Assembly (NCBI GenBank): GCA_001777655.1
Contig: MFER01000013.1
Coordinates: forward strand, 2,619 to 66,618
From: Candidatus Doudnabacteria bacterium RIFCSPHIGHO2_02_FULL_43_13b
Lineage (GTDB): Bacteria; Patescibacteriota; Doudnabacteria; UBA920; O2-02-FULL-48-8
Reading direction: 5' to 3'
DNA: 64,000 nt
Shown here: one piece after another, positions 21,181 to 47,129 of the stretch
Layout of the letters: each line of letters starts with the position of its first letter
Numbering within the stretch: the first letter of the stretch is position 1
Notes under the pieces: model-generated
The model's input: the letters and a program-made list of their open reading frames with translations, nothing else
The model's database searches: none
Told to the model about the DNA's origin: nothing
Program-made: the position numbers and the translations under genes

Positions 21181-21285
21181 TTGAGAATGCTATGGAATTA
21201 AAAATTTGATTTCATGGCGGTCTCTGTAAAGACCACAGTTCTTTTCGTCAACAATCAAGCACATTCCGCCAGGAGGCGGATCATC

Positions 21286-23031: not shown

Positions 23032-23058
23032 AACACCAAGGAGGTGTTCGATAGGTTT

Positions 23059-23115
23059 CGGAGGGAAGTGTTCAGGTTTCAACCCTGACACTCCCCTCCA
23101 CCCTTTCTTTATAAA
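23059..23115 (+). terminator. rho-independent terminator inside GC island
   Basis: GGAGGGAAGTGT...ACACTCCCCTCC stem then T-rich tract. Confidence 0.5.
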
Positions 23116-23264
23116 TCTTTTAGCTCAAATTTTTAGTTCCAAAACTTGGAGCCAGAAACTTGGGCTCAAAAATCCCAAGACGGTTCTTTTGAATCAAATA
23201 GTTTAGTTCTAGTTGTTCGTTTCGTCAACCAGCTTCAGAGCCGCCTAGGTGCGGGAGGTGAGTC

Positions 23265-24122: not shown

Positions 24123-24133
24123 GAGAACGAACA

Positions 24134-24772
24134 ATGGCAGACACACCGAAGGGCGGCAGTCATACCATCAAAGATTTTCTTTTTGATGGTTTCCGTGAGC
24201 TGTTCGTCACCCACGGCCTCCCCATGATGGTCAAACTGGCTAACCGAGCCAGTGAGACAAGACTTGCGGAGAGAGAGGGGCGGAAACGCAACAAGCACTA
24301 CTTCGCGGCCGCCATGGTCAAGCTTCGGCTGCGCGATGGTCGCGCCGCCGACGTGATCGGCGACTTTGTCGATCACTGGCTCAACACTGACGCTGACCGC
24401 GAGGATTTTCAACACAACGCGGCCTGTGTCGGCACGGACAAGGACGAGAAGATGGGCGACACGGTGGAATTCCTCTGGCAGCTGGCACATCTGCCTGATC
24501 ACGCCGCTCGTGAAGTCCATCTGACTGCTCTTGGCTTCATCGGCGCACGCAGCGTCGACATGGCTGAGAAGGCAGTGGAGTTGCTCAAGCGGGTTCGTGA
24601 CGAGGTCAAGGACCTGCCGGCTGATGCCAAGAAGAAATTGAACGAAGGCACCAAGGCACTGCGGGAACTCAACAACAAGCAGTGGATGCAGAATGCCGAG
24701 AAGTCCTCGGCAGCATTCAGACAGACAGCAGCCACCCGGCTGACGGGCTACAGAGCTCGCCGGCGTTCGTAG
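24134..24772 (+). CDS. hypothetical protein
   Basis: 212 aa GC-rich ORF with SD (GTAGGAGAA) at correct spacing; no motif recognised. Confidence 0.35.
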   Translation: MADTPKGGSHTIKDFLFDGFRELFVTHGLPMMVKLANRASETRLAEREGRKRNKHYFAAAMVKLRLRDGRAADVIGDFVDHWLNTDADREDFQHNAACVGTDKDEKMGDTVEFLWQLAHLPDHAAREVHLTALGFIGARSVDMAEKAVELLKRVRDEVKDLPADAKKKLNEGTKALRELNNKQWMQNAEKSSAAFRQTAATRLTGYRARRRS

Positions 24773-24783
24773 GAGAGACTCAC

Positions 24784-25635
24784 ATGATCACGATCCTTGG
24801 AATTCTCATCTACGGGCTGATTGTCTGGTGCTTGTTCAGTCCGCGCGTTCGCAACCAGGTCCGCGACGTCCTCGTCGGGGCCTGGGACTACCTGCAACTG
24901 GGTGGCCTCAGCGCCTACGACGCTGCGGTCGCTTTCCTCTACGGGCTCATCGTGCTCGTGGTGGTGGACATCGTGGTCCTAATCATCGCAGTGGCGATCG
25001 GCATCCCCGGGATCTTGGTTGCCTTCTTCGTCACCAACGCGCTGCTGTGGTTCGTGCCGATGTATGTGCTGTGGCTTCTGCATCTGCCAGTGGCAGCGGC
25101 AGGGGCCCAGATCAGGTGGTTGGGAACAAAATTGGGGTCCGTCCCACTCTTGTTTTTCCCATTTTTCCCAGTCCGACTGATCGGCCGGTGTGTTCACGCA
25201 GTTGGCACGATCGTCGTGCTCTCGGCAGCGCTGGCGCGCTGGATGACCGGGTTGCTGGTGCAAGTCACTCTCATCTCCTTGCTTCTGTCAGGGCTGGCCC
25301 TGCTGGACTTGGAGATGGGATGGCACATCGTCAATCCGTTCACCATGACGATGGCGGGACTGCTGTGGATGACGATCACATCACTGCAGATCTTCCGCCA
25401 AACCCACCCGGGTTCTGTCGGAATCAAAATCCTGGGGCGGGCGGCAATCGGTGTACTACTCGCGGTCGGAGTAGTCCACTACTGGCCGCTTTGGAAAAGT
25501 GTCGGGCTCAGCGTTCTGAGCTTCGATTTCGGCGATGAGGAAATGATGTTTCGAGGCCTCATCGTCGTGGCGCTGCTGGCGGCTCTCGTCGTTGGCCTGC
25601 GCACTCGCAGCTCATCATCAACAACCGCTCGCTGA
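24784..25635 (+). CDS. hypothetical polytopic membrane protein
   Basis: TAGGAGAG SD then ATG 24784 (MITILGILIYG...); 7-8 hydrophobic helices. Confidence 0.45.
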   Translation: MITILGILIYGLIVWCLFSPRVRNQVRDVLVGAWDYLQLGGLSAYDAAVAFLYGLIVLVVVDIVVLIIAVAIGIPGILVAFFVTNALLWFVPMYVLWLLHLPVAAAGAQIRWLGTKLGSVPLLFFPFFPVRLIGRCVHAVGTIVVLSAALARWMTGLLVQVTLISLLLSGLALLDLEMGWHIVNPFTMTMAGLLWMTITSLQIFRQTHPGSVGIKILGRAAIGVLLAVGVVHYWPLWKSVGLSVLSFDFGDEEMMFRGLIVVALLAALVVGLRTRSSSSTTAR

Positions 25636-25647
25636 GGAGACACGGAC

Positions 25648-26436
25648 ATGAAAAAAGTGCTAATCAGCGTCGCGACGTTCGTGTTCATCCTCGCAGCGGG
25701 ATCTGGGGTTGGCTTGCTGTGGACCAGTTTCTTCCCGCCGGAAGAGCGGGGGGTCAGGGTTGCCACGACTGATGCCAACGGAATGGTCAAAGCGCACGCA
25801 GGTGACGCCAAGACCATTCTCAAGCAAACCGGCTTCCGCGGCGGCAACGGCCGGGTCAGCGTGACGATGTTTAAGGACACCAGAACACCGGTGTCTATGG
25901 ATATCGCCAATGCCAGGCAAGCTCGCGACGAGCAAATCGCCATTGCTCGCGGCGGGTTCCTGCCAGCGCCGGATCGGTTCCTCGAAGGCTACACCCACGA
26001 CTGGGTGAGCAGCGGGATTCCGGTCTACACCTGCACGCACGTTACGGCAGCGGGTAGGATCACTCGAGATCCCATCACCGCTGCCGGGCCAGACGGCATC
26101 AATCTGGATGCCATGAATGCAGAAACGCGCAGCGCGTTTGTGCAAGAACATGGCGACAGGGCCAAGGTGCTCCCTGGGGTTCCCTGGGGAACGTTCATCG
26201 GCAAAGTCTGCGCAGACGCTGGCGGGAACAGCTGTCAAACGCCGTTCCCAATCGGCCAAAGCGCGTACCTGTCGGCTGAGCGGGTCGGTGCAGGGACGTT
26301 GTGGATCTGGACCAACGGTTTCGTAGCCCAATCAAGTACGGGGCTGTTGAATCGTTCGGACTTCAACGTCTATCAGGGCGGCTTCCGGTTCGAGCACGAG
26401 GCCGCGCCTGAATACAAGTGTAAGGGGGGGTTCTAG
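25648..26436 (+). CDS. hypothetical secreted protein
   Basis: Signal peptide MKKVLISVATFVFILAAGSG; GAGGAG SD. Confidence 0.4.
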   Translation: MKKVLISVATFVFILAAGSGVGLLWTSFFPPEERGVRVATTDANGMVKAHAGDAKTILKQTGFRGGNGRVSVTMFKDTRTPVSMDIANARQARDEQIAIARGGFLPAPDRFLEGYTHDWVSSGIPVYTCTHVTAAGRITRDPITAAGPDGINLDAMNAETRSAFVQEHGDRAKVLPGVPWGTFIGKVCADAGGNSCQTPFPIGQSAYLSAERVGAGTLWIWTNGFVAQSSTGLLNRSDFNVYQGGFRFEHEAAPEYKCKGGF

Positions 26437-26473
26437 TCCGTCGGCAGGTTCGCTTGCCAGCGGAGCAACACCG

Positions 26474-26520
26474 GGGTGTTGGGAAGACCACAAATCTTCT
26501 CACACCCCGCTTTTTTATTT
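26474..26520 (+). terminator. rho-independent terminator
   Basis: GGGGTGT...ACACCCC stem followed by GCTTTTTTATTTT. Confidence 0.5.
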
Positions 26521-26572
26521 TGCGAAGCAAAATACCCCGACCTTTAGCGTCGGGGTCATAAATATCAATGCC

Positions 26573-26601
26573 TTGACTTTTTGTAGCTTTTTTGATATTA
26601 T
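26573..26601 (+). promoter_or_regulatory. sigma70-type promoter for last island gene
   Basis: TTGACT-17-TATTAT, then AAGGAGGG SD 7 nt before ATG 26691. Confidence 0.4.
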
Positions 26602-26690
26602 ACTTCGTCGCATTCATCATTTCTTTTTTCGCGACATTTATACGATACGTTCAATTCGCACACTCTCAAGTCCAAGGAGGGACTTTACCA

Positions 26691-27685
26691 TGAAGCGCGC
26701 TCTACTCGTCGCTCTCGTTTTCGTCGCACTGGGCATGCCAGCAATGGCTGCTCAGACGCCACCCTCACCGATTTTCGAGCAAAAGCTCGAGGCGGTGGCG
26801 GTGAAAACTGTTACTTCGGTTCCCGTGCTTCTCGCGGAGATCGCGAAGAAGCACCAGCTCCAAGTCTCGATCGACGAAAAACTGGACATGGATCGGATGT
26901 ATTTGGGCGAAGTCCCGGCTGGGACGCTGAAAAGCCAGATCGAATTTCTGGCCAAGCAGTGGGACGGCAGCGCAAGTTTGGTCGGAGGCGACTCGGTCGT
27001 CATCCTCTCGACCAAGTCTTTGCCCACCAAGGCCAAGGAGACCCCGACCGCAACCACGCCGCCACCCACCACGCCCCCCCAACCCCTGCCACAGCAAACG
27101 ACAGTTGCCCGGTTGCCCTACCCATCACTGTCGGCCGCAGTAATGTCCGACAGCATGCTACCGATAACCGGGCCCACCTGGATGGACCTTCGGATGCAAG
27201 AATACAACGCCTGGGCAGAAGCCAACCAGGCATACCGAACATTCCGGTCCGCCCAGCCGTACTACTTCGGGGCTGACCAGGTCTATTCGGACGCGTACTA
27301 CCAAGGCGGGTACGGCGGTGGACTCATGTGGGGCAATCAGTTGCTCCGAATCAAAGGAGCCGCCACCCACGGCTACCTAAAAATAAACGCCATCGGCGAC
27401 ACGAAGTTTATCAAGTACGTCGTGGTGCTGCGACAGGACACGGACGGCGTTTGGATTACGGAGGGCTCCGCTGGAAAGTCCTTCCGAGATTTTCACGAGC
27501 CGATCGAGCTACCCGTCGGACGGTGGCGACTGCGGTTTGAGCTACGGAGGGATGGAGTGACCAAGTACTTGGAAGAGGTGTTTAACATCGAATCCAAGTA
27601 CGATCTATTCCATCCCAAGCAGTACGCCATTTCGGAAGAAATGATGAGAAGCTTTGGTACAACCGAAGCTATCATCAGGCGCTGA
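26691..27685 (+). CDS. hypothetical secreted protein with Pro/Thr-rich linker
   Basis: Signal peptide MKRALLVALVFVALGMPAMAAQ; TPTATTPPPTTPPQPLPQQTT linker; ORF-track start 26573 is upstream read-through. Confidence 0.45.
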
Positions 27686-33926: not shown

Positions 33927-34592
33927 ATGACAACTAAAGTTTTTTCCGCAGCATTAGTGGGGCTTGATGCTGCACCGGTAGAGGTGGAAGTAGATATCTC
34001 AGGGGGGCTGCCAAAAGTAATTGTCGTTGGGCTTCCCGACACTGCGATCCAAGAGGCTAGAGAGCGAGTCAAATCGGCAATTAAAAATTCTAACGCGATT
34101 TTCCCGCCCAGCCGGGTGGCGGTGAATTTAGCCCCAGCGGACTTGCCCAAAAATGGCACCCATTTTGATTTGCCAATCGCGATTTCAATTTTGCTGAATT
34201 CCGGCCAAATCTTTTTTGATCCCAAAAACAAATTATTCGTTGGCGAATTAGCCTTAGATGGCAATTTGAGAGCGGTCTCTGGCATTTTGCCAATTGCTTT
34301 GATGGCCAAACAACTTGGCTTTAAGCAATTATTCATTCCGAAAGACAATAACCAAGAAGCCGGCTTAGTCGATGGAATCGAAATCATTCCAATCAAAAAT
34401 CTTTATGAGATTATCGGGTATTTGCAAAATTTGATTAAAATAGCTCCTTTGCCCAAACCAAACTGGAACCGATTCTTAAAATCCCCCGAAACTTTATTCG
34501 ACATGAAATTAATCAAGGGCCAAGAAGCCGCGAAGCGGGCGCTAGAAATAGCCGCTGCGGGTGGGCACAATATTCTTAAGTTATATTCCTAA
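33927..34592 (+). pseudogene. comM: comM/yifB (Mg-chelatase-like AAA+ competence protein) 5' fragment, interrupted by insertion
   Basis: ChlI/YifB N-terminal domain; ends ...ALEIAAAGGHNIL-KLYS*, i.e. stops at the first codons of Walker A. Confidence 0.75.
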
Positions 34593-34726
34593 TTCAACAT
34601 CCGTTAAGTTCAAGATAATTAAGCCAATATCCGTAAAAAGATAGGCATTTTTATATCTAACCAAAACTTGACGTTGGGCTTTCCATTCGATAGATTTTAC
34701 AAAATAAGTAATGAAAATGTAATTTT

Positions 34727-35635
34727 ATGCAAAAAGATTTAACTTTAAGCCCTGAAGCAAATCACGACAACGCTAAGAAGATTTTTGATAATTTGGATGT
34801 AAGCGAATCTACCAGAAAGGATTATCAATACAGAGTTGGATTATTCGTGGATTACATCCGTAGAAATAATTTTAGTCGCAACAGTTATTTAGAATACAAG
34901 CGATATCTAGCTGGAAGAAATGATGTGTCTACTTCCACGAAAAATAAATTTTTGATTGTCGCCAAAATCTTTTTAAGAGAACTTAGCCGCCTTGGTGTGA
35001 TGCAATCAGACATCACTCAGAACATAAAGACCTTCAAAGAAAATCACAAACATAAAAAAGAAGGTTTGAATGAAGAAGAAATGCAGAAGTTGGTAAGTTG
35101 GTTGCGTGAGCTTCCCTCCACTCCACAGAATACTAGACTGAGAGCCATTATAGCGTTACTCACGCTTAACGGCCTGCGACAGATTGAGATAGTAAGGTTA
35201 GACTTCAAGGATTTAGATTTAGTAGCCAAAACCGCTTTCGTTTTGGGGAAGGGGCAAGATGACCGGGAAATAGTTCATTTGCATCCCGAAGCAGTCAAAG
35301 CAGTCAGTGAATACTTGAAAGTAAATAAAATAGCTGATGGAGCTTTGTTCGTAAGTATCAGCAACGGTAGTAGAAACCATCGCCTGACAACCAGAGGACT
35401 AAGACAGATTGTGCAGAAGAGCCTTAAAAGTTTGGATATTGAAAGATGTGTTCACGGCTTCCGACATTATTTCGCTACGGCATTGATTAACAGCTACAAG
35501 GGAGATTTGCTGGAAGTGAGTCGGTATACAAGACATAAAAGTATCCAAATGCTTGAAGTATACAATGATAATATAAAGCAGAAGGCAGATTTACCACGAT
35601 ACTATAAGGTCTTTGAATCAATTAACTTTAGTTAG
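34727..35635 (+). CDS. tyrosine recombinase / phage-type integrase
   Basis: R (LNGLRQIE), HGFRHYF (H-x-x-R), terminal EVY catalytic Tyr. Confidence 0.8.
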   Translation: MQKDLTLSPEANHDNAKKIFDNLDVSESTRKDYQYRVGLFVDYIRRNNFSRNSYLEYKRYLAGRNDVSTSTKNKFLIVAKIFLRELSRLGVMQSDITQNIKTFKENHKHKKEGLNEEEMQKLVSWLRELPSTPQNTRLRAIIALLTLNGLRQIEIVRLDFKDLDLVAKTAFVLGKGQDDREIVHLHPEAVKAVSEYLKVNKIADGALFVSISNGSRNHRLTTRGLRQIVQKSLKSLDIERCVHGFRHYFATALINSYKGDLLEVSRYTRHKSIQMLEVYNDNIKQKADLPRYYKVFESINFS

Positions 35636-35662
35636 CCGTAATAATGTGATAAAATTCAAAAT

Positions 35663-36616
35663 ATGACAACAGAAAACCTAAACTTACTTCCCAAAAATAA
35701 GTTAAAATTTTCAGAGAAATATTCTGATGCCTCCGATGTAGTTTTGTTTCATGGGGACAGATTAGATTTTATGAAATCCTTACCAAGCAAATCAGTCAAA
35801 CTTGTAATTACATCTCCTCCTTACAATATAGGAAAAGCATACGAAAAAAGAAAAGACCTTGATTTATATCTGGCCGAGCAGGAAGAATCGTTCAAGGAAT
35901 GTGTTCGAATTTTAGATGACCAGGGAAGCTTGTGTTGGCAAGTCGGGAATCATATCGCTAAAGATGGAGAAGTTTTTCCACTGGACACTCTTCTATATCC
36001 GATTGGTAAGAAGTTTGGATTGAAACTAAGAAACAGAATCATTTGGCATTTCGGTCACGGACTGCATTCAACCTACAGATTTTCAGGTCGCCACGAAAGT
36101 ATTTTATGGTTCACAAAAACTGATGATTATACTTTTAACTTAGACCCAATCCGTGTGCCACAAAAATACCCTGGCAAAAAGAATTTCAAAAAAAATGGGA
36201 AGCACGGAGAATTTTCTGGCAACCCCTTAGGTAAAAATCCGTCAGACGTATGGGAAATCCCAAATGTTAAAAGCAATCATCCAGAAAAAACTTCTCATCC
36301 TTGTCAGTTTCCAATAGAGTTAGTAGAAAGATTGGTTTTATCAATGACCAACGAAGGCGATATAGTTTACGACCCATATGCAGGTGTCGGAAGTGCTTTG
36401 TGTGCTGCCGTTTTGCATAATAGAAAGGCATATGGTTCTGACATAATGGAAGAATACCTAGACATTGCAAAAGATAGAATTATAAAAGCCGTCAATGGAA
36501 CACTGAAACGGCGAATTATGGGAACTGAAGTTTATAAAGCAGAAAATTCCAATTTATCAAAAACACCTGAAGAATTTACTAAAGCAAGGTTAAAATTGTT
36601 TGGGTCCAGGAGGTGA
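35663..36616 (+). CDS. beta-class DNA methyltransferase (N4-C or N6-A), type II R-M
   Basis: Motif IV VITSPPYN precedes motif I DPYAGVGSA (permuted order of beta group). Confidence 0.8.
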   Translation: MTTENLNLLPKNKLKFSEKYSDASDVVLFHGDRLDFMKSLPSKSVKLVITSPPYNIGKAYEKRKDLDLYLAEQEESFKECVRILDDQGSLCWQVGNHIAKDGEVFPLDTLLYPIGKKFGLKLRNRIIWHFGHGLHSTYRFSGRHESILWFTKTDDYTFNLDPIRVPQKYPGKKNFKKNGKHGEFSGNPLGKNPSDVWEIPNVKSNHPEKTSHPCQFPIELVERLVLSMTNEGDIVYDPYAGVGSALCAAVLHNRKAYGSDIMEEYLDIAKDRIIKAVNGTLKRRIMGTEVYKAENSNLSKTPEEFTKARLKLFGSRR

Positions 36617-37267
36617 ACCATTATAAGTTGTTAGTTTAAGTATTTTTAAGGCCGCTTCTCTATCAGTTTCAAAAAGTTTTCGAAGTTTTGAACACTTAAT
36701 TTCTTCTTCTGGAGTAAGTCCTAGACTAATTACAAATACTGGAATATCGATATTGCTTTCACCCCGGAATTCAAAGTCTACTAAAAGTTGTTCAAAATCA
36801 GAAACACCAGTCGACATTTGTCTGGCTAATTTATGTCCAGGCACAACTTCAATTCCACATTCAATCAAACCTACTTTATTAAAAATCACCATCTTGGAAA
36901 AAATATCATAACCCATAAAAGCGTATTTCCCAAACTGGATTTCCAAACCAACATTATTTTTTATCCCGTCCATTTCTCTAAACCTATTATTACCGAATGC
37001 GTGACGAGGTTCGGTAAAAGCCTTCTTCTTCCCCACCGCTTTTTCAGTCCAACCCTTTGCATGCATAGTGGTTTTAAGCAACTTATTCATAGTAGAAGGA
37101 GAAAATAAAAGTTTACCCTTCATCGTTTTTTCTTGACTTTCCTTTACCAAACAGACAGTAGCATCTAAACTTTCAATTGCACCCAAAACTTCCCTCAATT
37201 CTTTTGGGTGTTTTACTTTTATAAATTTTTCTCCGCCTTTGAATGAGTAAGTGTCTACAACTTGCAT
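36590..37267 (-). CDS. BglII/BamHI-family type II restriction endonuclease candidate
   Basis: Convergent with MTase, overlapping 3' ends; REMDGIKNNVGLEIQFG gives D-x8-E-x-Q spacing like BglII D84/E93/Q95. Confidence 0.45.
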   Translation of the reverse strand: MQVVDTYSFKGGEKFIKVKHPKELREVLGAIESLDATVCLVKESQEKTMKGKLLFSPSTMNKLLKTTMHAKGWTEKAVGKKKAFTEPRHAFGNNRFREMDGIKNNVGLEIQFGKYAFMGYDIFSKMVIFNKVGLIECGIEVVPGHKLARQMSTGVSDFEQLLVDFEFRGESNIDIPVFVISLGLTPEEEIKCSKLRKLFETDREAALKILKLTTYNGSPPGPKQF

Positions 37268-37663
37268 AAAATCTTATTTTTGTTTCTCTATTCTAGCACT
37301 TAATGGTTAAGTTTAAAAGCTCCTGTTAGGCATCCAACTTCTTCTCTTTATACTTACAGGAAATACAAACTTAGGTAATTTTCAGGTATGATTAGGGCAT
37401 GCAGAAAAAGTTTACATTGCCTATACAACCGCCTCGACTCAAAGGAAAACTAAACCATAATGATTTGCAGGATATCTATAGAACTATTTGTAGAAACACT
37501 GGAATAGAAGTCAGGTTGGTAGATATGTGGCATCTTAGAAATAAATATAAAACTTCTCACTACGGTTTAGTGGTGAGCTATGGTAAAAATACACATGACA
37601 TATATCTCAAAAATTTATTCATCATAAAATAATAGGTTTATTATAAATATAGGTTGTAAGTGA

Positions 37664-38959
37664 TTAGCCTTTTGATGCAGGAGTTGTAGAGAAGAGCTTA
37701 AGGATAATTTCAATCTTACGCCGTAGCTCGTCAAAACCGACAATCTCAACATCTTTATTACTGTTCCTGAAAAGTTCAAAAGATTTTAGTTGTGGTTTTT
37801 TTAAATCAGAGACATTCCCAGCCACTACAATGCATTTTGAGTTAAACGATTCTATATCCTCGCCGTTCATAACTGAGTAAAAATCTTTTTGGAGAGTATG
37901 TCTCTGGTCTAGCACCTGGTTGATTGCTCCGCTTAAACCTCTACTGATTGAAAACACGTCCTTGCCACGATAAGGTCTTCCCTCAAGAAGCTTACTTTTA
38001 TGAGTTTTAATTTCAATTATGGCTAAGTTTTTTGAGAACTCGCTTTTATAAATAAAATCTGCGTACTTACCACCTTTGTTTTCGAAACTTTTGCCGCCTA
38101 CATAGGCTTGGTTTTTAAAAATAACCATCGGGTAAGAAAAGAGCTGAGAGAATATCCAGCCGTTCTCTTTGAAAAACGCCTGCCATTTTTTTTCCAGCGT
38201 TTCTGTTTCAGTCTTTTGTTCAATTAAAGCATTAAAATTTTCTAAAATAGTTTCGATGAACACCTTATCAATAGCTTCCTTTGTAGCTATAACTTTTTCG
38301 TGAGACACATTTGAATTTGGCAGTGTCTGAATAAGCTGTGTTATCTTGTCAATATCATAATCAGAGAGTTTTTCATTCGTTAATCGGTTCTCTTCAATGT
38401 AGTTGCCTAGGGAGCCAGTTACATATTTTTTATCTTCAATTTCAAATTTCTTAGGAAATATTGAATGAAGAATATCACTGGCAAGAATATTAATCTCTTG
38501 TCTGTGTCTTTTAAGAAGTGGTGAGATACGGTTGTAGGCCTTATCTAAATCTGAAGCGTTAAATACAATTTTGTTTCTATTGGGAAAAAATTCACTAGCT
38601 AATTTAGAAGATACAATTATATTTGAGATGATGGGGCACTTCTCTTCAAGGAAGTAAATTAGCGGACTTAATTCTCTAGTAAATCCATAACCATTTGCCC
38701 AAGTTTTTAGAAATCCCCTGGGTAGGGTTTCGGGCATCTCGTGGTACTCAATGCATTGAATAAATTTGTATTTATTCTCTCCAGTCTTGCGGTTATACGG
38801 GTAATGTAAAACTATCTTCTTTTTCTTAAATATTTCTCTAGATAATAACTCAAATCCATTTTCTCCATCGGTATAGAAATAAACATCCTTGGTAGCTAAG
38901 GATTTATGTAAAGTTTCTTCGGGGTCTGCACCAGTAATTTTAATTTTATTCTTATTCAT
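37664..38959 (-). CDS. Shedu-like (DUF4263) PD-(D/E)xK nuclease-domain protein
   Basis: C-terminal KKWQAFFKENGWIF...YADFIYK...LAIIEIK...AINQVLDQRH...CIVVAGN...VEIVGFDELRRK mirrors DUF4263 core. Confidence 0.5.
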   Translation of the reverse strand: MNKNKIKITGADPEETLHKSLATKDVYFYTDGENGFELLSREIFKKKKIVLHYPYNRKTGENKYKFIQCIEYHEMPETLPRGFLKTWANGYGFTRELSPLIYFLEEKCPIISNIIVSSKLASEFFPNRNKIVFNASDLDKAYNRISPLLKRHRQEINILASDILHSIFPKKFEIEDKKYVTGSLGNYIEENRLTNEKLSDYDIDKITQLIQTLPNSNVSHEKVIATKEAIDKVFIETILENFNALIEQKTETETLEKKWQAFFKENGWIFSQLFSYPMVIFKNQAYVGGKSFENKGGKYADFIYKSEFSKNLAIIEIKTHKSKLLEGRPYRGKDVFSISRGLSGAINQVLDQRHTLQKDFYSVMNGEDIESFNSKCIVVAGNVSDLKKPQLKSFELFRNSNKDVEIVGFDELRRKIEIILKLFSTTPASKG

Positions 38960-39332
38960 AGTTGGACGGTTTAGTTACCGAATCTAAATACCTCATAACA
39001 TCTGCCTTATCTATAAGGTAGCGTTTTATTTTCGTCGTGGGGTTAGAGAGTTGTGCTTTTATTTTGCCCCCATCAATCAGCTTCCTCAAGGTAATAACTG
39101 ATTTAATGGGAAACCAAGGCTGCTTTACTAACTGGGGGCAGGTAAAAACTTCCGAGCTTCCCGTTGACTCTCCCCTTAACCCATCAGGCCGTAGTATTTG
39201 GTGAATTCTTGCTCTGGACACATTAAACTTGTTACCTATTTCTTCCAAAGTATGACGGTGATAGCCATTTCGCCCCCACCTCATATCCAGCATAGTTTTT
39301 ATTTGTGCCTCACTATATTTACTTTTACTCAT
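38952..39332 (-). CDS. small DNA-binding protein: sigma-70 region-4-like HTH plus excisionase/MerR-like HTH
   Basis: TLEEIGNKFNVSRARIHQI and ITLRKLIDGGKIKAQ...RYLIDKADVMRYL; 8-nt overlap with Shedu-like gene. Confidence 0.5.
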   Translation of the reverse strand: MSKSKYSEAQIKTMLDMRWGRNGYHRHTLEEIGNKFNVSRARIHQILRPDGLRGESTGSSEVFTCPQLVKQPWFPIKSVITLRKLIDGGKIKAQLSNPTTKIKRYLIDKADVMRYLDSVTKPSNYE

Positions 39333-39570
39333 AAGGATTTTCTATATTGTAGCACTATTTACAAACCATATAAAATGATATAATAACATCACAATTTAAT
39401 AAGACCTAAATCTTTCAATTTTTTGATTGAAAGACATGGACTCAAAACCTGAAACATATTGAACCCTCACCAGGTCCTGTTTCAGGTTATATGGGGAAAC
39501 CCATATAGGTGCCGTAAGGCATCACTGGTGGGGGCTTTATGTTGCCCACCTCCAGAGAAAGAAAAAATTT

Positions 39571-40098
39571 ATGAAATGCCCATATTGTGCGGAGGAGATT
39601 CAAAACGAAGCTAAAATTTGCAAGCATTGCAAAAGTAATTTGGTGAATCCTGCCAACAATCCTTCATTGTCAGTAGACAAGCCAAAAAGGATTTTGCATC
39701 AAAAGTTGGGAACGGGAAGCTGTTTAATTTTATTCTCGGCTATTTTTTTCATAATAATAGTTTCAGTTGCAGTTATGTCTCTAGGCGGAAATGAATCCTC
39801 TTCGGTTTCCACTCCCCAGCAATCCACGGTAGACTTCGCCAAGGTTGAAAAAGCGATGGAAGATTTAACCAAGGCGGGACTGGTCAAGAAAACAGACCCA
39901 AGCCTAAACCAGGTCTATGTAAGCAAGCCATATTGGGATGCCCAGGACATTGAAGCCAAGGAAACCGCCGCAAAAGCCTTTGCCTACTATGTCGGCTACA
40001 AGAAGGGAACCAACCTTTACTGGGTGGACATTTATGATTGGCAATCAGGCAAGCGATTAGCAAAATACAGCGAATCTTGGGGCTTCACGGTTTATTAG
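39571..40098 (+). CDS. zinc-ribbon membrane-anchored protein with extracytoplasmic domain
   Basis: CPYCAEE...CKHCKSN ribbon, one TM helix, 100-aa C-terminal domain. Confidence 0.4.
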   Translation: MKCPYCAEEIQNEAKICKHCKSNLVNPANNPSLSVDKPKRILHQKLGTGSCLILFSAIFFIIIVSVAVMSLGGNESSSVSTPQQSTVDFAKVEKAMEDLTKAGLVKKTDPSLNQVYVSKPYWDAQDIEAKETAAKAFAYYVGYKKGTNLYWVDIYDWQSGKRLAKYSESWGFTVY

Positions 40099-40168
40099 TT
40101 ACGTGTAACCATTTTCAGAAGAAACGGCAGCTATTTAATTTAATCTGAAATCGGGATATAATTTATCT

Positions 40169-40690
40169 ATGGCAAAAGACCTTGAGAACAAAATCAACAA
40201 GAATTCCATATCCCTGGCTGGCGAATTTGCCGTGCTTTCCCAACTGGCCTTGCGTGGTTACGACGCAAACATGACCTTGGGTCATACCAAAAGCGTTGAT
40301 ATTTTGGTTTCCAATCCCAAGAATCATCAAATGTATCAGTTGGAGGTTAAAACCAACTTTGCCAGCTCACGCTCTCAAGGTTCAAATTCCAAATTGTTTG
40401 GCAAGATAGTCAGTGCCTGGATTATGGGTGATAAGCACGAAACCATAACCAGCCCTAATCTTTTTTACTGCTTCGTCAACATTGGCAGAGATACTAACGT
40501 CTTTCGTTTCTTTATCGTCCCAAGCAAAGCGGTGGCTGAATACGTTAAGGTGCAACATCAGTTATTCAGGAGCAACGGAGGCAATGATAACCCAATGCGT
40601 ATGTTTCGTATCGGTTTGAAAGCCGAACAATACGCAATTCCAACTCCGACAGTCGAGCAGTATGAAAATAATTGGGAATTTAAGGAATAA
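40169..40690 (+). CDS. PD-(D/E)xK nuclease-fold protein (Hjc/DUF4365-like core)
   Basis: GEFAVLSQLALRGYDAN...VDILVSN...YQLEVKT gives E...D...E-x-K arrangement. Confidence 0.4.
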   Translation: MAKDLENKINKNSISLAGEFAVLSQLALRGYDANMTLGHTKSVDILVSNPKNHQMYQLEVKTNFASSRSQGSNSKLFGKIVSAWIMGDKHETITSPNLFYCFVNIGRDTNVFRFFIVPSKAVAEYVKVQHQLFRSNGGNDNPMRMFRIGLKAEQYAIPTPTVEQYENNWEFKE

Positions 40691-40696
40691 ATTTTT

Positions 40697-40858
40697 ATGG
40701 CTTGGTACGGAAATTCAAAAGGACACGCCGAATCGGGTAGGAAAGGCGGCAAGGCCCAGGGCAAGCGTAATAACCCAGGCAACTTTGCCAATGACAGAAA
40801 GAAAGCGGCAAGAGCTGGGCGTAAGGGCGGATTAAGCAAGCCGAGTATTACTAAATAA
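40697..40858 (+). CDS. KGG-repeat general stress protein (YciG-like), 53 aa
   Basis: Not in ORF track (<60 aa); GRKGGKAQGKRNNPGNFANDRKKAARAGRKGG repeats. Confidence 0.6.
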   Translation: MAWYGNSKGHAESGRKGGKAQGKRNNPGNFANDRKKAARAGRKGGLSKPSITK

Positions 40859-40902
40859 AATTCAAAGAATAGTTGCGGTCAGAATTATTATTTTGAATAA
40901 CA

Positions 40903-41526
40903 TTGAAAAAAAAGAAATCCACCCCGATTAGCAAACTTGAATTATTGAGATATAAATCGGATTTTCAATCGGGCATAATTAAATTACGAAAAAAGTGGGG
41001 AGTCCCAGAGAACGGTTTTGATATTTATAAGGAATATAGAGCATGGGAAAATAAAGTCTTTTATAAAAATGGCGAAGCAATTATTTCAGACCTAAATTTA
41101 CTTAAGAAGGAGGGCCTAAAATCAAATCCGGTTTATAATATATTATTTTTGTGGGATTATTTTGCAAAAAGCGAACGTATAAGAAACATCGAGCCGAAAA
41201 ACGAGCTTTCGGTTCAGCTTCACACAAAGGACTTGAGAGTTACCGTTAATAATCTAAACCCCTCGACTACCCAGGAAGATTGGCTTGATTTGTGGCCTAT
41301 GATTAAAAAATTCCAACATTTTTTACCCAATTATGTTGCAAATAGGCGTTCAAGAAAATCAACGAACTGGATAATTGCCAAATTCGCACATGAACAGGCA
41401 CTAAATGGGATTAAACATAAGGATATAAAGACAAGTATAAAAAAAGAATTCGGAATAACATACGACACTTCATATATTTCAAAGTTAATACGAAGGTTCA
41501 AGGAATTTATAGAAAAAGACACTTAA
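40903..41526 (+). CDS. hypothetical protein
   Basis: 207 aa, followed by clear hairpin terminator. Confidence 0.3.
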   Translation: MKKKKSTPISKLELLRYKSDFQSGIIKLRKKWGVPENGFDIYKEYRAWENKVFYKNGEAIISDLNLLKKEGLKSNPVYNILFLWDYFAKSERIRNIEPKNELSVQLHTKDLRVTVNNLNPSTTQEDWLDLWPMIKKFQHFLPNYVANRRSRKSTNWIIAKFAHEQALNGIKHKDIKTSIKKEFGITYDTSYISKLIRRFKEFIEKDT

Positions 41527-41559
41527 GTCTGGCTTAACTGACTTCGACACTTTTATAGG

Positions 41560-41592
41560 CTACATCTTATACTGGATGTAGTTTTATTTTTG
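41560..41592 (+). terminator. rho-independent terminator
   Basis: CTACATC...GATGTAG stem then TTTTATTTTT. Confidence 0.55.
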
Positions 41593-41877
41593 CAAATTTA
41601 TTTTTAATCAGTGATTTAATTCACGGTCAAAGACCCGATAGAGGGCTTGAGCATTCATCTGACCGTGAACTCAAGCCTTGTGTCGGTTTTTAATTAGCAT
41701 TGTAATTTTATGTCCAAAGAAGAATTCGAAATTAGCTGGAATCACGTTGCCAGCCAAGATTCAGAAGATAAAATCCTTGAGGCCTTTAAGATTCTTTTAG
41801 GGGAATAGTTTCATCGTAACTAAAAAAACTTTAATTCCCAGTCGTTACGCAAATCTTAACAAATTTATGGAAATGTC

Positions 41878-42114
41878 ATGCAAACTAAATCATATCAAAC
41901 CAAAGATTTCTACATAGCCGCCGTGCTTTACGCTTCCGGTCAGGTGATTTCGTCATCGGAGTGGAGCAATGGCAAGTGTTATTTTAATTTTGAAAATCCA
42001 AAGAAATGCGAACAGGTAGTCGGCGGATATTATCAAAACAAGGTCATTATGGACGCAAAAAAATTGATTGATGCAATTCAGACGATAAAAAGCATCATCC
42101 ACTCGGAGAACTAA
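41878..42114 (+). CDS. hypothetical small protein
   Basis: 78 aa. Confidence 0.3.
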   Translation: MQTKSYQTKDFYIAAVLYASGQVISSSEWSNGKCYFNFENPKKCEQVVGGYYQNKVIMDAKKLIDAIQTIKSIIHSEN

Positions 42115-42142
42115 ATTATTAAGAAAGATGAGATGAAATGTT

Positions 42143-42622
42143 ATGAAAGACTTCACGATGATTCCTAACGAGACATACGAAGCGTTTTTGTGTGGCGAAA
42201 TTACACTTTCCGAGTGGGCGGTGCTTATATGGATATACCAAAAATCCAATCCTACTAAGGGCAGAAGCGTTGTTAACTATCCAGACATGGTTTCTCAATT
42301 CAAACCGTTAATAAAATATGACAATGCCAGAAAAATCCTCTCATCACTACGGAAGCACAAGTGGGTATATTTCAAGCCCCATCGGGGAAGTGGTGGAGCA
42401 TTTCCCGTATATCCATGCCCACTCATGCTGTCGAGCGGGCAAATACAAGTGATTGACAGGGTTACGGGAGAGAGAAAAGTTATAGATGACCCCGACCCTA
42501 GACCTAAACTTAGACGCAAACGAACCCTTGTTCCGCCAAACTCATCACAACTTTCGTCCTCGAATCACAACAGTGACAAGCAAAATGCCCCGTCAATTAA
42601 AGGTCAAGGTCAGCTTGAATAA
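42143..42622 (+). CDS. hypothetical protein with possible N-terminal winged helix
   Basis: 159 aa; followed by GGCGGCGTAAACGCCGCC hairpin. Confidence 0.3.
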   Translation: MKDFTMIPNETYEAFLCGEITLSEWAVLIWIYQKSNPTKGRSVVNYPDMVSQFKPLIKYDNARKILSSLRKHKWVYFKPHRGSGGAFPVYPCPLMLSSGQIQVIDRVTGERKVIDDPDPRPKLRRKRTLVPPNSSQLSSSNHNSDKQNAPSIKGQGQLE

Positions 42623-42808
42623 TAGTTCGTTCACAACCCTCTATATTTAGACTGATACTTAAACCTAGACCTAGACGAAGTAAAGAAAAGATAAGTAAAG
42701 AGAGAGGCGGCGTAAACGCCGCCACAACATCAAAGTGCTCACTTAAACGAATTAAGTAATATATTCAGATTAGAGTTAAAACCTGTCCGTCCCGCCAATT
42801 TAATGTCG

Positions 42809-43053
42809 CTGTTTCTTGAGAAATACGACGTATTGCGACAAGAACGACAATAAAATTTATGGAAAATGAAATTGTAGGAAATTTAGATTTGGCCTGTACA
42901 CGCCTGTACGAGCCTGTGAATTTATGAATTTGTTGTTTCTTGAGAAAAACGACGCACAGCGACGCAGACGACGCAGAATTTTATGGAAAATGAGATTGTA
43001 AAAAATTAAGAATTTGCCTGTACATGACTGTATAAGCCTGTGAACTTATGGAA
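42809..43053. repeat. two ~124-bp tandem repeat units with internal short direct repeats (iteron-like)
   Basis: Units begin GTTTCTTGAGAAA (42811, 42935); each contains GACGCA-type and 3x GCCTGTAYR sub-repeats. Confidence 0.6.
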
Positions 43054-43379
43054 GAAAGAGACTGTCAAAATTAAGGGTTTAGTCTTGCGTTTAGGGTGCA
43101 AAAGTGGGTTAAGGGAAATAAATCATAATTTTTGCACAAGGTTTCAAAATCCATAGGAGGACGGTGGCGGGCTTGGTTCTGTCCTACCACTCCAACAATC
43201 GCATCCCTGCCGTCATAAGCGGTAAATCGAAAATTACGAACGTCGGGGGCTAATCAAACCAAAGCCCAACCACCCAAAGAAGCCAAAGGATAATTTTGTT
43301 TCTCTTACTTGCGGTCATGTGGTCAAAAGTTATGATTCAATCATAAACCACCAACGCAGGAGGGAGAAAGCAAAAATTT

Positions 43380-44351
43380 ATGGGCAAGGCTAAGAATCAA
43401 ACTTTGTTTGGAAACGAAATGCCAGAACACAACGGTTTCCCCACGAACTTGTTGACATCAGGGTTGCAAAAAGCTATTAGGAGGAACGATGAACAAAGGG
43501 CGTTGAAGATAACCAAGGCCCTATTCCGGCAGGACCCGCAGTCATTCCTTCGTCGCATAGTGGTAATAGCCGCAGAAGATTGCCTAGTTTTGCCAGCCAC
43601 CGGCAAAATCGTGGAGCTTGCCAGAGAGTACGGCTCCAAAAAACGGATAGCGGCAATGACGAAAGAAAAAATCCAAGCCGATTGCCAGTTTGCTCTTGAA
43701 ATCGTCCAACAGCTTGCTCTCTGTCCCGTGCGAGACTATGACGGCGGAGGATATGTTCCTTATCTTTACCACAAGAAGGACATCAACAAGTTGCCGACTG
43801 ACACGACAGGGTTATCTAAAAAAGAAGCCGAGCTGGTGGGAGCCATCCGCAAGCGTAAGGCGATGGGAGGTATGCGTGGTGACTTATGGACGTTGGAAAT
43901 AGTTGCCCATATATGGACTGACCGCTTCAAGCGAAAACAATTCACCGTCAAGCAGTTGGAAAATTATTTCCCAGAGCCGACGGTCAAGGCCGAAGAAATA
44001 TCAGACCAACCTGACGAGTCGGACATTCCGATAGAAACGATTGACAGCCATTGTTCGGGAATTGTGCCGATATTGCTGAAAAAGCCGCAAGTCACGGCGG
44101 CGATTAAAGCGGCGTGGGGAAACATGACGAGTGAGATGATGGAAACTAAACTGAAGCAGACGTTGTTTTATTGCAGAAGCTGGATAAATTTCAAGGCAGA
44201 CATCATTTCCGGCAGAACGTTCGACAGGTTCGGGACAATTGTTTACGAAGACAAGCCGCTTGAGCAGGAAAAAATAAGGAGGGTGTATGAGGAAATAGCG
44301 CAGGAGGTAAATAAACTTAGTCGCTGGATTATCCAGCAGTCATTAAAGTAA
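43380..44351 (+). CDS. hypothetical protein (323 aa) downstream of iteron-like repeats
   Basis: No motif recognised. Confidence 0.3.
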   Translation: MGKAKNQTLFGNEMPEHNGFPTNLLTSGLQKAIRRNDEQRALKITKALFRQDPQSFLRRIVVIAAEDCLVLPATGKIVELAREYGSKKRIAAMTKEKIQADCQFALEIVQQLALCPVRDYDGGGYVPYLYHKKDINKLPTDTTGLSKKEAELVGAIRKRKAMGGMRGDLWTLEIVAHIWTDRFKRKQFTVKQLENYFPEPTVKAEEISDQPDESDIPIETIDSHCSGIVPILLKKPQVTAAIKAAWGNMTSEMMETKLKQTLFYCRSWINFKADIISGRTFDRFGTIVYEDKPLEQEKIRRVYEEIAQEVNKLSRWIIQQSLK

Positions 44352-44613
44352 TCAAGAAAGTAAATAATTTATGAGCATTTTATGCAAAGGTTATCAACTG
44401 GGTGGTTCGTCCGAGGCAAGATTGACAAGTATAATGAAAAATTTTGCCAACAGGCGGACAAGAGAAGGCAAGCAAAGGTCGCAAAAAAGCAAAAGACCCA
44501 AGCCGATAAGCAGTAGGTCTTTAGCGGAAACCAATTAAGCGTCGTAACGCCTAACCGTTTGTCTGTATTATAATACGACATTCGGAAAAGCGGAAGACCT
44601 GAAGATTAGAATT

Positions 44614-46347
44614 ATGAATGTTACAATTTATGGTCGTGTTTCAACGGAAGAGCAGAAAAAGAAGGAAAATATCGACTCCCAAGTCGACGAGTTAGAAAAA
44701 TTGGCTAAAGAGAGCAAGGGAGAGTATTCGCTAATCAATGATTATAAATATCTTGATGATGGTTGGAGCGGAGGCATCTTAAACCGTCCGGCGTTAGATA
44801 AGTTAAGAGAGGATGCGACTAGGGGTTTATTCTCGGCCGTATTGGTCAATGATGTAGACAGGCTTTCAAGGGACAATACCCACTTAGGAATCATAATAAA
44901 AGACCTGAGGCGTAAGGGCGTGCGGGTAATTTTTCGAAAGCATCCTGGCGAGCAGAACCCCCAAACGAATTTACTCATAAACATTTTGGGGTCGTATGCG
45001 GAGTTTGAGAAAGAAATGATAGCGGGAAGAACTCGGAGAGGGCGAATGTATAAAGCTCAGGTGCTGAAAAAAATTGTCGGGAGCAGACCGCCTTATGGTT
45101 ATAGATACATCAAAGGTGATAAGAGCAAAAATATATTCGGTTATTATGAAGTGGTTCCATCTGAAGCCGAAGTCGTTAAAATGATGTTTAATTGGGTAGC
45201 CTATGAAAAGAAAACCGCCAGAGAAGTTGTTAGAGAATTAACGAGAAGAAAAATTCCAACCAAGAAAAAAAATACGAAGTGGGCGAAAAGCACGGTTCTA
45301 AGAATCCTGCATAGAACTGATTATATATGCAAGCTGTATTACAACAAGCAAGAATGTGTTGAAACTGACAAACACATCAATACTGATTTGAAGCCTCGCA
45401 AACAGTTAAAATCAGGCAGACGGACAAGACCAATCGAAGAATGGATACTCATACCCTTACCTGAACATTTGAGAATTATCAGCGATAAGACTTTTGATTT
45501 AGTTCAAAAATCAATAACAAATAATTTGTCGTTTTCTCCCAGAAACGGTAAGCGGGAATACTTGCTTAGAGGCAGGGTGTATTGCGGTTTGTGCGGATGT
45601 CTTTATCAGGGCATACCGTGCCACGGGAAAACTTACTATCGTTGCGGAAACAGGGGCAAGACATTCCCAGAACCAAGAACGTGCTTTGCACCGACCATAA
45701 CGACTTCTAAACTTGACCAGCCTGTATGGGAAGCATTGACTAGAGCAATACAGAATCCCAGATTGATTGTGGAACAGGTCAAAAAAATTAAATCTTCTCG
45801 ATATTCGGAAGAAGACAAAATTCGGGGGCAGATAGACGAATTAGCAAAGCAGGTTAACAGCTACGACCAAGAAGAAGAACGGGTCTTGGAGGCTTACAGG
45901 CATAAGGTGATTACGCTTGAGCAGTTGAATAAAGAGATGACTAAAATTCGCCAGGAAAGAGCCGTCTTTATTCAGCAACGTGATGAATTATTAGCCAAGC
46001 TAAGCAAGGTTTTACCCGAAGACGCTGAAAAGTCCGTCATAGCATACTGTGCGATTGTAAAAGCCAAATTAGAGAAAATGAGCTTTACAGAGAAACAACA
46101 ACTATTGCGGCTATTGGTTAGCAAGATAGTTTTGCAGGACAAGAGATTTGAGATAGACGCAGAGATACCATTGGTTGACAGCGATTATCTAAAATCCTTC
46201 AAAAACAGCAAAATCCTTGAAAATGATGAAGCAAGTTCAATTAGGAACATAAGCTCCTGCTTTCCGGACCCCCCGGTACAGGCAAAACCTTGTTGGCGAA
46301 AGCCCTCTCCTCTATTTTACCCAAACCCACGGTCAGCGAGGTGCTAG
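44614..46347 (+). CDS. large serine recombinase (resolvase/invertase N-domain plus recombinase and zinc-ribbon domains)
   Basis: YGRVSTEEQ catalytic Ser, DRLSRD, Cys cluster CGLCGC...YYRCGN; ORF tail runs across the comM junction. Confidence 0.85.
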   Translation: MNVTIYGRVSTEEQKKKENIDSQVDELEKLAKESKGEYSLINDYKYLDDGWSGGILNRPALDKLREDATRGLFSAVLVNDVDRLSRDNTHLGIIIKDLRRKGVRVIFRKHPGEQNPQTNLLINILGSYAEFEKEMIAGRTRRGRMYKAQVLKKIVGSRPPYGYRYIKGDKSKNIFGYYEVVPSEAEVVKMMFNWVAYEKKTAREVVRELTRRKIPTKKKNTKWAKSTVLRILHRTDYICKLYYNKQECVETDKHINTDLKPRKQLKSGRRTRPIEEWILIPLPEHLRIISDKTFDLVQKSITNNLSFSPRNGKREYLLRGRVYCGLCGCLYQGIPCHGKTYYRCGNRGKTFPEPRTCFAPTITTSKLDQPVWEALTRAIQNPRLIVEQVKKIKSSRYSEEDKIRGQIDELAKQVNSYDQEEERVLEAYRHKVITLEQLNKEMTKIRQERAVFIQQRDELLAKLSKVLPEDAEKSVIAYCAIVKAKLEKMSFTEKQQLLRLLVSKIVLQDKRFEIDAEIPLVDSDYLKSFKNSKILENDEASSIRNISSCFPDPPVQAKPCWRKPSPLFYPNPRSARC

Positions 46348-47129
46348 AAATAACTAAAATTTACAGCGTGGCGGGCTTGCTGCATTCGAACAAGAATCTG
46401 GTCACCACCAGACCGTTTCGCCATCCTCATCATACTTCTTCGTCCATCGCTTTAGTGGGCGGTGGCTCGATGCCCAAACCCGGTGAAATATCCTTAGCTC
46501 ATCGGGGGGTGCTATTCCTAGATGAATTCCCTGAATTTGGCCGGTCGGCTTTGGAAAACTTAAGACAACCCTTAGAAGATGGGGTGGTTACGGTTGCCCG
46601 CGCTGCCGCCACCCTGACTTTTCCCGCCCAATTCACGATGGTTGCTGCCCAAAATCCCTGTCCTTGCGGCTATTATTCCGATCCGGGCAAAACCTGTACT
46701 TGTTCACCATCACAAATCATGAAGTACCAAAAAAAAATCTCAGGTCCTCTCCTTGATCGGATTGATCTTTGCGTCGAGGTCGGCAGGGTGGAGTATGAAA
46801 AACTGGCTTCTGATGATCTAACCGAATCATCTGCAGATATACAAAAACGCGTGCAAACTGCGCGCAATGTTCAAACTAAGCGATTTGCCAAATACCCAAA
46901 TATAAAAACTAATTCAGAAATGGGGATTCGAGAAATCAGGGAGTTTTGTAAACTTGATGATAGTGGTCAAAATTTTATGAAATCTGCCGTGATTAAGATG
47001 TATCTATCCGCGCGTTCTTATCATCGGATCTTAAAACTTGGACGAACAATCGCAGACCTCGAAGGTTCAGAGGATATTAAAATTCCGCACTTGGCGGAAG
47101 CAATTCAGTATCGCCCCAAGGTAGAATAA
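46245..47129 (+). pseudogene. comM: comM/yifB 3' fragment (AAA+ ATPase and C-terminal domains)
   Basis: Frame opens after TAG at 46242: EHKLLLSGPPGTGKTLLAKAL (Walker A), VLFLDEFPEF (Walker B), Mg-chelatase C-terminus. Confidence 0.8.

Follow-up and report, generated by a model that had tools for sequence, protein, structure and literature searches.

Does a small helix-turn-helix (HTH) protein belong to a Shedu nuclease as a dedicated partner when the two genes overlap, or is it a gene of other standing behind which the nuclease came to lie? We studied this question in a 64,000-nucleotide stretch of Candidatus Doudnabacteria bacterium RIFCSPHIGHO2_02_FULL_43_13b (contig MFER01000013.1), which as a whole is called the window below. 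Two open reading frames (ORFs) are at issue, and both are present in the ORF listing:

37664-38959, minus strand: sduA, full-length Shedu nuclease of 431 residues (PF14082, PADLOC SduA, motifs, PDB profile match, AlphaFold2 and Foldseek)
38952-39332, minus strand: two-domain DNA-binding protein of 126 residues, here the HTH protein (Sigma70_r4, HTH_17, PDB profiles, AlphaFold2, Foldseek, family alignments)

A first, sequence-only reading had taken the pair for an unusual Shedu architecture, with the small protein as a dedicated regulator or Xis-like factor. The nuclease proved to be what it was taken for, but the partnership did not. The Shedu locus holds an ordinary single-gene nuclease, presumably anti-phage, on a mobile defence island. 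We consider it moderately probable that a self-sufficient Shedu gene here lies behind a DNA-binding regulator of the defence island and is transcribed from the promoter of this regulator, with SduA acting alone.

The nuclease is a full-length SduA

The Pfam family PF14082 (SduA_C/DUF4263) matches residues 255-412 of the 431-residue protein with an E-value of 7.2e-25 (88.4 bits against a cut-off of 27), and the PADLOC model PDLC00384 (SduA), the best of 14 matching SduA models, covers residues 71-427 with an E-value of 2.2e-81. The identity as a Shedu/DUF4263 nuclease, first read from the letters only, is thereby confirmed. In UniRef the protein (OGE82397.1) is named 'Shedu protein SduA C-terminal domain-containing protein'. 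The SduA motifs can be followed through the sequence as LEKKW (E256), ADF (D301), IIEIK (E316, K318), INQVLDQ (Q348), CIVVAGN and VEIVGFDEL. In an alignment of 39 full-length homologs the five residues E256, D301, E316, K318 and Q348 are invariant, and in a profile alignment they pair with the motif I-IV residues E204, D249, E264, K266 and Q295 of the Bacillus cereus protein, so the catalytic D/E/K positions do align, as the earlier reading had supposed.

In the AlphaFold2 model (mean predicted local distance difference test, pLDDT, 82) a beta-rich N-terminal domain at about residues 1-134 is followed by a helical linker (135-273) and a PD-(D/E)xK core (255-412). The comparison with known SduA structures that had been proposed as a check gave 8TI8, 8TI9 and 8PS5, that is the Shedu structures of B. 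cereus and Escherichia coli, as the top Foldseek matches, with E-values from 4e-13 to 1e-10. The TM-score on the target is 0.65-0.79 for the B. cereus chains and 0.31 for the E. coli structure 8PS5. Further, the profile of the SduA family matches PDB entry 8TI8 at an E-value of 8e-58, with family residues 179-419 against chain residues 129-381; the N-terminal 178 residues have no match among PDB sequences at E<=10.

The best-studied point of comparison is the Shedu of B. cereus B4264 (PDB 8TI8/8TI9; Gu et al., bioRxiv 10.1101/2023.08.10.552793). The two share the C-terminal DUF4263 PD-(D/E)xK core, motifs I-IV and the helical linker, at a model-to-structure TM-score of 0.67-0.79. The B. cereus system is also a single gene, and the window sduA lies beside a restriction-modification (R-M) system, as is often reported for Shedu. 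They differ in that the N-terminal approximately 130 residues of the window protein have no sequence match to any PDB chain, and in that the window gene overlaps an HTH gene upstream.

A search of 5.8 billion proteins returned 440 homologs at E<=1e-10. Among the best 120 of these 440, all contain PF14082, most are about 415-440 residues long with a query coverage of 80-100%, and they come from Patescibacteria, Bacteroidota, Chloroflexota and other phyla. The whole window protein, N terminus included, is colinear with stand-alone homologs of about 420-430 residues from many phyla. A split version of the Type 1G fusion, where a winged HTH is fused to Shedu, is ruled out, since the window SduA aligns from its own M1 with stand-alone homologs. 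By the definition of Gu et al., under which a Type-1 Shedu is a nuclease that carries an N-terminal regulatory region of its own, the window nuclease is a genuine member of this type.

The upstream protein combines two helix-turn-helix domains

The HTH protein is built from two modules:

residues 8-48, nucleotides 39189-39311, minus strand: sigma-70 region-4-like three-helix HTH (Pfam and model)
residues 62-120, nucleotides 38973-39149, minus strand: excisionase/MerR-type winged HTH (Pfam and model)

Sigma70_r4 (PF04545) matches residues 13-48 with an E-value of 1.8e-7 and 31 bits, above the cut-off of 24.1. Given the E-values, neither this gene nor the PF14082 gene is a chance ORF. HTH_17 (PF12728), at residues 81-117, stays below its cut-off (E-value 8.5e-5, 23.2 bits against 27), but a relative in locus L067 passes it with 34.6 bits (homologous loci are cited by our L numbers). 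The make-up of two HTH domains, as originally described, therefore stands. The AlphaFold2 model (pLDDT 82) consists of a three-helix domain, a disordered linker and a winged HTH of beta-alpha-alpha-beta-beta-alpha layout.

PDB profile matches of the protein are to sigma region 4. Foldseek aligns the first domain with region 4 of sigma-A over about 50 residues at 36-46% identity, with a probability of 1.0 and an E-value of only 0.014, and the N-terminal 50 residues superpose on region 4 of Thermus aquaticus and E. coli at 2-3.6 Å. Among the E. coli residues that contact the -35 element (R584, E585, R586, R588 and Q589), the R, R and Q positions are kept in the HTH family; E585 corresponds to A or Q, and R588 to H, F, Y or Q. 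In contrast to sigma-70, the HTH protein lacks regions 1-3: regions 2 and 3 are unmatched and region 4 is all that is found. On this ground a role as a sigma factor was rejected.

The C-terminal module gives weak structural matches to viral Excise, MerR-like and PrtN models. Its predicted beta-alpha-alpha-beta-beta-alpha layout fits the winged HTHs of the excisionase family and MerR-like proteins (PF12728; Xis, AlpA, PrtN), but it differs from them in the motif KQPWFPIKS..TLRKLI, which is conserved in the winged-HTH module of the family, and in its arrangement, single or as a tandem pair, which may or may not be accompanied by the sigma-4-like domain. From the two predicted folds we infer that the protein binds DNA.

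The HTH family is small. A search of 5.8 billion sequences gave 36 proteins at E<=1e-3, one of 1.84 billion gave 21 representatives, and all members with a source name are from Patescibacteria. Three architectures are found: a stand-alone winged HTH of 60-90 residues, the sigma-4-like domain with one module, as in the window protein, and the sigma-4-like domain with two modules. A metagenome scan for the family gave a single locus, L067, and no relatives were found in the viral contigs of IMG/VR.

The junction between the two genes

Two short features describe how the genes are joined and how they may be transcribed:

38952-38961, minus strand: gene junction with the 8-nt overlap ATGAATAA (homology breakpoints)
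39346-39374, minus strand: promoter-like site TTTATA-17-TACAAT with a TG extension, 14 nt upstream of the HTH ATG (consensus scan)

The overlap is as first described: within ATGAATAA the stop codon of the HTH gene ends at 38952 and the ATG of sduA starts at 38959. DNA homology between the window and an sduA ortholog of 83% identity extends from 38960 to 37728 only, and thus starts one base before the sduA ATG. The homology of the 126-residue protein to its two-module relatives ends at 38961. The coincidence of these two breakpoints suggests that the overlap arose by recombination, where a Shedu cassette the size of one ORF was joined to an HTH gene already in place, and does not descend from an old coupled pair. 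The window HTH gene is without the second module of its relatives, and a tblastn search of the window with two-module relatives found no remnant of this module downstream of sduA. The comparison shows that the HTH-sduA junction is specific to this lineage.

The site at 39346-39374, a consensus match, probably drives transcription of HTH and sduA together. No terminator-like site was found in the stretch between these genes, where again consensus matches only were considered. Co-transcription of the two genes, which had already been proposed, is probable from the overlap, the lack of an intervening terminator-like site and the promoter-like site upstream.

Is the HTH gene a partner of Shedu?

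Neighbours of sduA were surveyed in 59 genome loci that encode the same full-length SduA family, using six-frame ORFs within ±4 kb. Not one of these 59 loci has an HTH homolog near SduA (hidden Markov model of the HTH family, hmmsearch at E<=10). Relatives of the HTH protein stand beside other genes. In view of these gene contexts a dedicated HTH partner, or an unusual Shedu architecture, is not supported, and this part of the sequence-only reading is given up.

The genes directly upstream of the surveyed sduA genes are of many kinds. For 38 upstream neighbours that were scanned, 25 of the 39 matched families are listed; Type I R-M subunits dominate (6 HsdS and 2 HsdM), and there are also a KAP NTPase, a UvrD-like helicase, a reverse transcriptase and an AAA_15 ATPase, as well as one protein with a MerR-type HTH and one with a ribbon-helix-helix domain. 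Neither Sigma70_r4 nor HTH_17 is among these 25 listed families. The spacing between the upstream gene and sduA is often tight, with gaps of -1 to 20 nt. Shedu genes often lie inside R-M operons (Gu et al., bioRxiv 10.1101/2023.08.10.552793), and the R-M-rich neighbours found here agree with this published placement.

In the closest ortholog, the one with 83% identity (L005 625-4034), sduA lies 14 nt downstream of a 694-residue KAP-family NTPase. The next ortholog, at 54% identity, has unrelated small genes upstream. The KAP NTPase and sduA of L005 may perhaps be another two-gene arrangement.

A genuine two-component Shedu is nevertheless a published fact. In KELShedu of E. coli (KELA, KEL80640.1, and KELB; PMC12577705), as in the window, the gene of a small DNA-binding protein lies immediately upstream of the DUF4263 nuclease gene in one operon. 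This system was shown by experiment to be a two-gene Shedu with a small dsDNA-binding partner, the genes being 3 bp apart. In the same way SduA could require the HTH protein, as KELB requires KELA, whether for DNA binding, for targeting or for sensing infection. The same-strand overlap of 8 nt fits such a system, and so does the finding that HTH relatives adjoin other PD-(D/E)xK nucleases. However, KELA is WYL/Sm-SH3-like by description, another fold and not an HTH, while the window protein combines sigma-4 and winged HTH domains. Both KEL genes are needed for defence, whereas by comparative genomics the window SduA family occurs without the partner: the pairing is missing from all 59 surveyed loci and from the orthologs at 83% and 54% identity. 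In addition, the window SduA retains its complete N-terminal regulatory region, and HTH homologs occur without Shedu. We therefore regard a two-component system as improbable at this locus.

Where relatives of the HTH gene are found

The genes next to HTH homologs differ from locus to locus. Two recurrent arrangements are:

L001 4881-6597: nuclease-HTH gene pair, Patescibacteria
L003 1-1585: nuclease-HTH gene pair, Patescibacteria
L067 3885-5564: nuclease-HTH gene pair, Patescibacteria
L074 and L075 5001-5216: 71-residue HTH gene
L076 21-236: 71-residue HTH gene

In L001/L002, L003 and L067 a two-module HTH homolog lies 21-31 nt downstream of a 350-362-residue protein with a NucS-type nuclease core. 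These nucleases match the PADLOC candidate system PDC-S11 with E-values of 1e-15 and 1e-13. The pair of PDC-S11-like nuclease and HTH occurs once in a prophage region and once amid housekeeping genes. As the nucleases of L001 and L067 are only 30% identical, the nuclease-HTH pairing has been conserved over some distance.

The single-module HTH of 71 residues in L074-L076 is found 3 nt before hsdM of Type I R-M operons; in L074 and L075 a DUF4268 gene is divergent from it. In L004 the HTH homolog precedes a DUF3800 gene that matches PDC-M04A (E-value 2e-11), and directly after this DUF3800/PDC-M04A gene there is a DUF3800-IX RNA (RF02968; L004 1564-1631, minus strand). Longer arrays are also seen. 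The genes of L070/L071 run on the same strand as methylase, GmrSD, a 469-residue gene, HTH, a 184-residue gene and NERD, and the array of L073 consists of helicase, DUF2130, a 261-residue gene, HTH, Schlafen-AlbA_2, further genes and NERD. Finally, single-module members occur within phage-like gene strings in L068, L069 and L077.

For several neighbours of HTH homologs neither Pfam nor PADLOC gave anything significant, and the nuclease-like motifs in them are readings by eye. No shared flanking motif or cassette boundary was seen at the HTH genes, and synteny between the island and the prophage loci with HTH homologs is limited to the HTH gene, besides generic methyltransferase and LexA matches. 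Judged by these contexts, members of the HTH family associate promiscuously with defence and candidate-defence genes and may lie before or behind them. Small DNA-binding proteins that lie beside varied defence genes, and are co-oriented with them, are familiar as the controller (C) proteins of R-M systems and as the WYL regulators BrxR and CapW. The resemblance is one of role only; the folds of these proteins (XRE HTH, winged HTH-WYL) are unrelated to a sigma-4 plus Xis-type winged HTH.

The position of the HTH gene bears on a further explanation, in which the pair would behave like a toxin and its antitoxin: the HTH protein neutralises SduA and autoregulates the operon, and its loss during infection frees the nuclease. 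A small upstream HTH gene that overlaps a nuclease gene is a typical layout of type II toxin-antitoxin systems. Further, SduA without its N-terminal domain is toxic in E. coli, but the full-length B. cereus protein is non-toxic alone, through autoinhibition (Gu et al.). SduA orthologs exist without the HTH, and three loci have the nuclease gene first and the HTH gene after it. We find this explanation very improbable.

LOOT RNA and a possible module

A structured RNA is located close to the HTH gene, followed further on by an additional gene of possible nuclease type:

39403-39523, plus strand: LOOT RNA (Rfam RF03000; 78.9 bits against a gathering score of 46.4, full model 1-121)
40169-40690, plus strand: 173-residue ORF with a D...EVK motif read by eye as PD-(D/E)xK-like (homolog at L047 9044-9217)

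LOOT occupies the divergent intergenic region. The start of the HTH gene is 71 nt away on one side, and a zinc-ribbon/transmembrane gene (39571-40098) begins 48 nt downstream of it on the other. Palindromes in this region are at 39411-39434, 39446-39488 and 39488-39507. About 20 nt upstream of its 5' end there is a TATAAT-like box. The stems of the RNA vary by paired changes among the copies in other loci. We know of no function assigned to LOOT RNA. The family originates from the Weinberg/Breaker alignment collection (ZWD) and is listed by Rfam as a metagenome-based family.

In L001/L002 LOOT is found upstream of a transmembrane gene, the PDC-S11-like nuclease and the HTH gene, and in L070/L071 it is 1.4 kb from the HTH gene. 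The window ORF 40169-40690 itself has no significant Pfam or PADLOC match. In L047, from Nomurabacteria, a homolog with 74% identity to it begins 65 nt after LOOT. This suggests that LOOT and the 173-residue gene form a unit. The same locus carries, 3.6 kb from LOOT, an SduA embedded in a Type I R-M operon; directly preceding this sduA, at L047 1714-3984, a MerR-type HTH is fused N-terminally to an HsdM-HsdS fusion. Among approximately 20 loci examined, a small sample chosen for other reasons, there are 4 independent LOOT loci, all beside nuclease-type genes. Two matches of a LOOT-derived DNA pattern in viral contigs were dismissed as chance, being inside a large coding gene and under the Rfam threshold for LOOT.

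The neighbourhood pattern of the HTH family and LOOT is a modest new lead. In its strongest form, the HTH protein, LOOT and an exchangeable PD-(D/E)xK nuclease would be a recurrent Patescibacteria module, with sduA as the nuclease exchanged in here. The position of LOOT at 71 nt from the HTH start and its recurrence in L001/L002, L070/L071 and L047 speak for such a module, and so does the identity of 36-46% between the N-terminal HTH domain and region 4 of primary sigma factors. On the other hand, six of the nine HTH contexts are without LOOT in the fetched DNA, the samples are small with loci picked for other reasons, and the gene order differs in every locus. That the HTH family and LOOT form an unrecognised regulatory or sensing module of Patescibacteria defence islands, with interchangeable PD-(D/E)xK nucleases, is a doubtful proposition at present. 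The nucleases would be Shedu here, and elsewhere the PDC-S11-like NucS-type and the 173-residue nuclease-like protein. As an addition to this idea, the sigma-4-like domain could mimic region 4 of the host sigma factor; in this free-standing form it might occupy or read -35-like DNA, or lure away sigma-binding proteins of phages as a decoy. If true, the module would give LOOT its first functional context.

The island in comM

The genes described above are located in an integrated island together with an R-M pair and two recombinases:

34575-46260, strand not applicable: integrated island of 11.7 kb, splitting a comM/yifB-like Mg-chelatase gene (split ChlI and Mg_chelatase domains)
33927 to about 34577 and about 46254 to 47129: N part and C part of comM (ChlI/Mg_chelatase domains divided)
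34727-35635, plus strand: tyrosine recombinase at the left end of the island (Phage_integrase, E-value 3e-24)
35663-36616, plus strand: N4/N6 DNA methyltransferase of a Type II R-M pair (N6_N4_Mtase, E-value 4e-53; PADLOC MTase_II, E-value 8e-81)
36590-37267, minus strand: BglII-like Type II restriction endonuclease (Endonuc-BglII, E-value 2e-17; PADLOC REase_II, E-value 2e-31)
44614-46347, plus strand: large serine recombinase at the right end of the island (Resolvase, Recombinase and Zn_ribbon_recom domains; junction position)

The island junctions read GGHNIL|KLYS* at about 34577 and EHK|LLLSGPPGTGKT at about 46254. The ORF of the serine recombinase, 44614-46347, crosses the right junction into comM sequence in another frame. 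The BglII-like endonuclease is the next gene downstream of sduA, on the same strand and after a gap of 396 nt.

The recombinases raise the question whether the comM island uses the HTH protein for its excision, as excisionase or recombination directionality factor, with sduA as unrelated cargo behind it. The C-terminal module of the protein is of a type that resembles the excisionase family (HTH_17), and the island bears both a tyrosine recombinase and a large serine recombinase. However, the HTH gene is placed centrally in the island, at distances of 3.3 kb and 5.3 kb from the recombinase genes. Further, the called genes and listed ORFs that lie up to 5 kb from the HTH homologs of L067, L070, L073, L074 and L075 include no recombinase family, which disfavours an excisionase role. 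Unlike excisionase-family proteins, the HTH family has no conserved linkage to recombinases in these loci, and the idea of an Xis-like factor from the first reading is not upheld. To our knowledge a sigma-4-like N-terminal domain is not seen in known Xis proteins either. All in all, we judge an excisionase function to be quite unlikely.

Some other features of the window were observed. Two small genes of the island encode a KGG stress-repeat protein of 53 residues (40697-40858) and a DUF5659 protein of 78 residues (41878-42114). In a non-coding part of the island, at 42810-43050, a direct repeat of 117 nt is present in two adjacent copies that are 79% identical, with a spacing of 124 nt. At 18000-27000 there is a block with a guanine plus cytosine (GC) content of 52-66%, compared with about 42% in the genome. 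Genes for a zinc-ribbon/PP2C-like protein, a VWA protein and a Ser/Thr kinase lie in this block, which may be foreign DNA or an assembly chimera.

How the locus may work

We return here to the explanation given at the outset, a self-sufficient Shedu gene behind a regulator. B. cereus SduA is an autoinhibited tetramer that is activated on infection (Gu et al., bioRxiv 10.1101/2023.08.10.552793). By analogy, the window SduA would be a homotetramer whose N-terminal and linker domains keep it inactive until it is switched on to cleave invading DNA. The gene acts as an ORF-sized cassette that elsewhere sits as the distal gene behind whichever defence gene lies upstream; in the Doudnabacteria island it has come to lie directly behind a small DNA-binding gene. 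It is probably transcribed from the HTH promoter and translationally coupled through the 8-nt overlap. The HTH protein would most likely exert transcriptional control of itself and of neighbouring defence genes, and it is probably not a subunit that Shedu requires.

Several points weigh against this explanation. Promoter-like sites are no more frequent in the region than expected from shuffled sequence, and the 8-nt overlap would also be expected of a true two-component system. The regulatory role of the HTH protein would follow from its domain type and neighbourhood only. Moreover, the HTH family repeatedly adjoins PD-(D/E)xK-type nucleases, so a direct tie to them, by targeting, sensing or neutralisation, is possible. 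As to extent, the HTH contexts covered are only about nine independent ones, and the nuclease calls for the 469-residue protein of L070, the 261-residue protein of L073, the 339-residue protein of L068 and the 173-residue protein of the window are motifs read by eye.

What the locus means for Shedu and for Patescibacteria

As a Shedu locus, the window adds little: the SduA label is already in UniRef, and Shedu genes next to R-M systems or on mobile elements are well documented. The junction analysis and the 59-locus survey together show that members of this Shedu family travel as units of one ORF and borrow whichever promoter lies upstream. The more general lesson is that a tight gene overlap alone does not make a two-component system.

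We know of no experimental characterisation of defence systems, or of their regulation, in Patescibacteria. If the association of the HTH family and LOOT with defence genes holds genome-wide, LOOT would gain a function open to test, and a new class of regulators of defence islands would be recognised.

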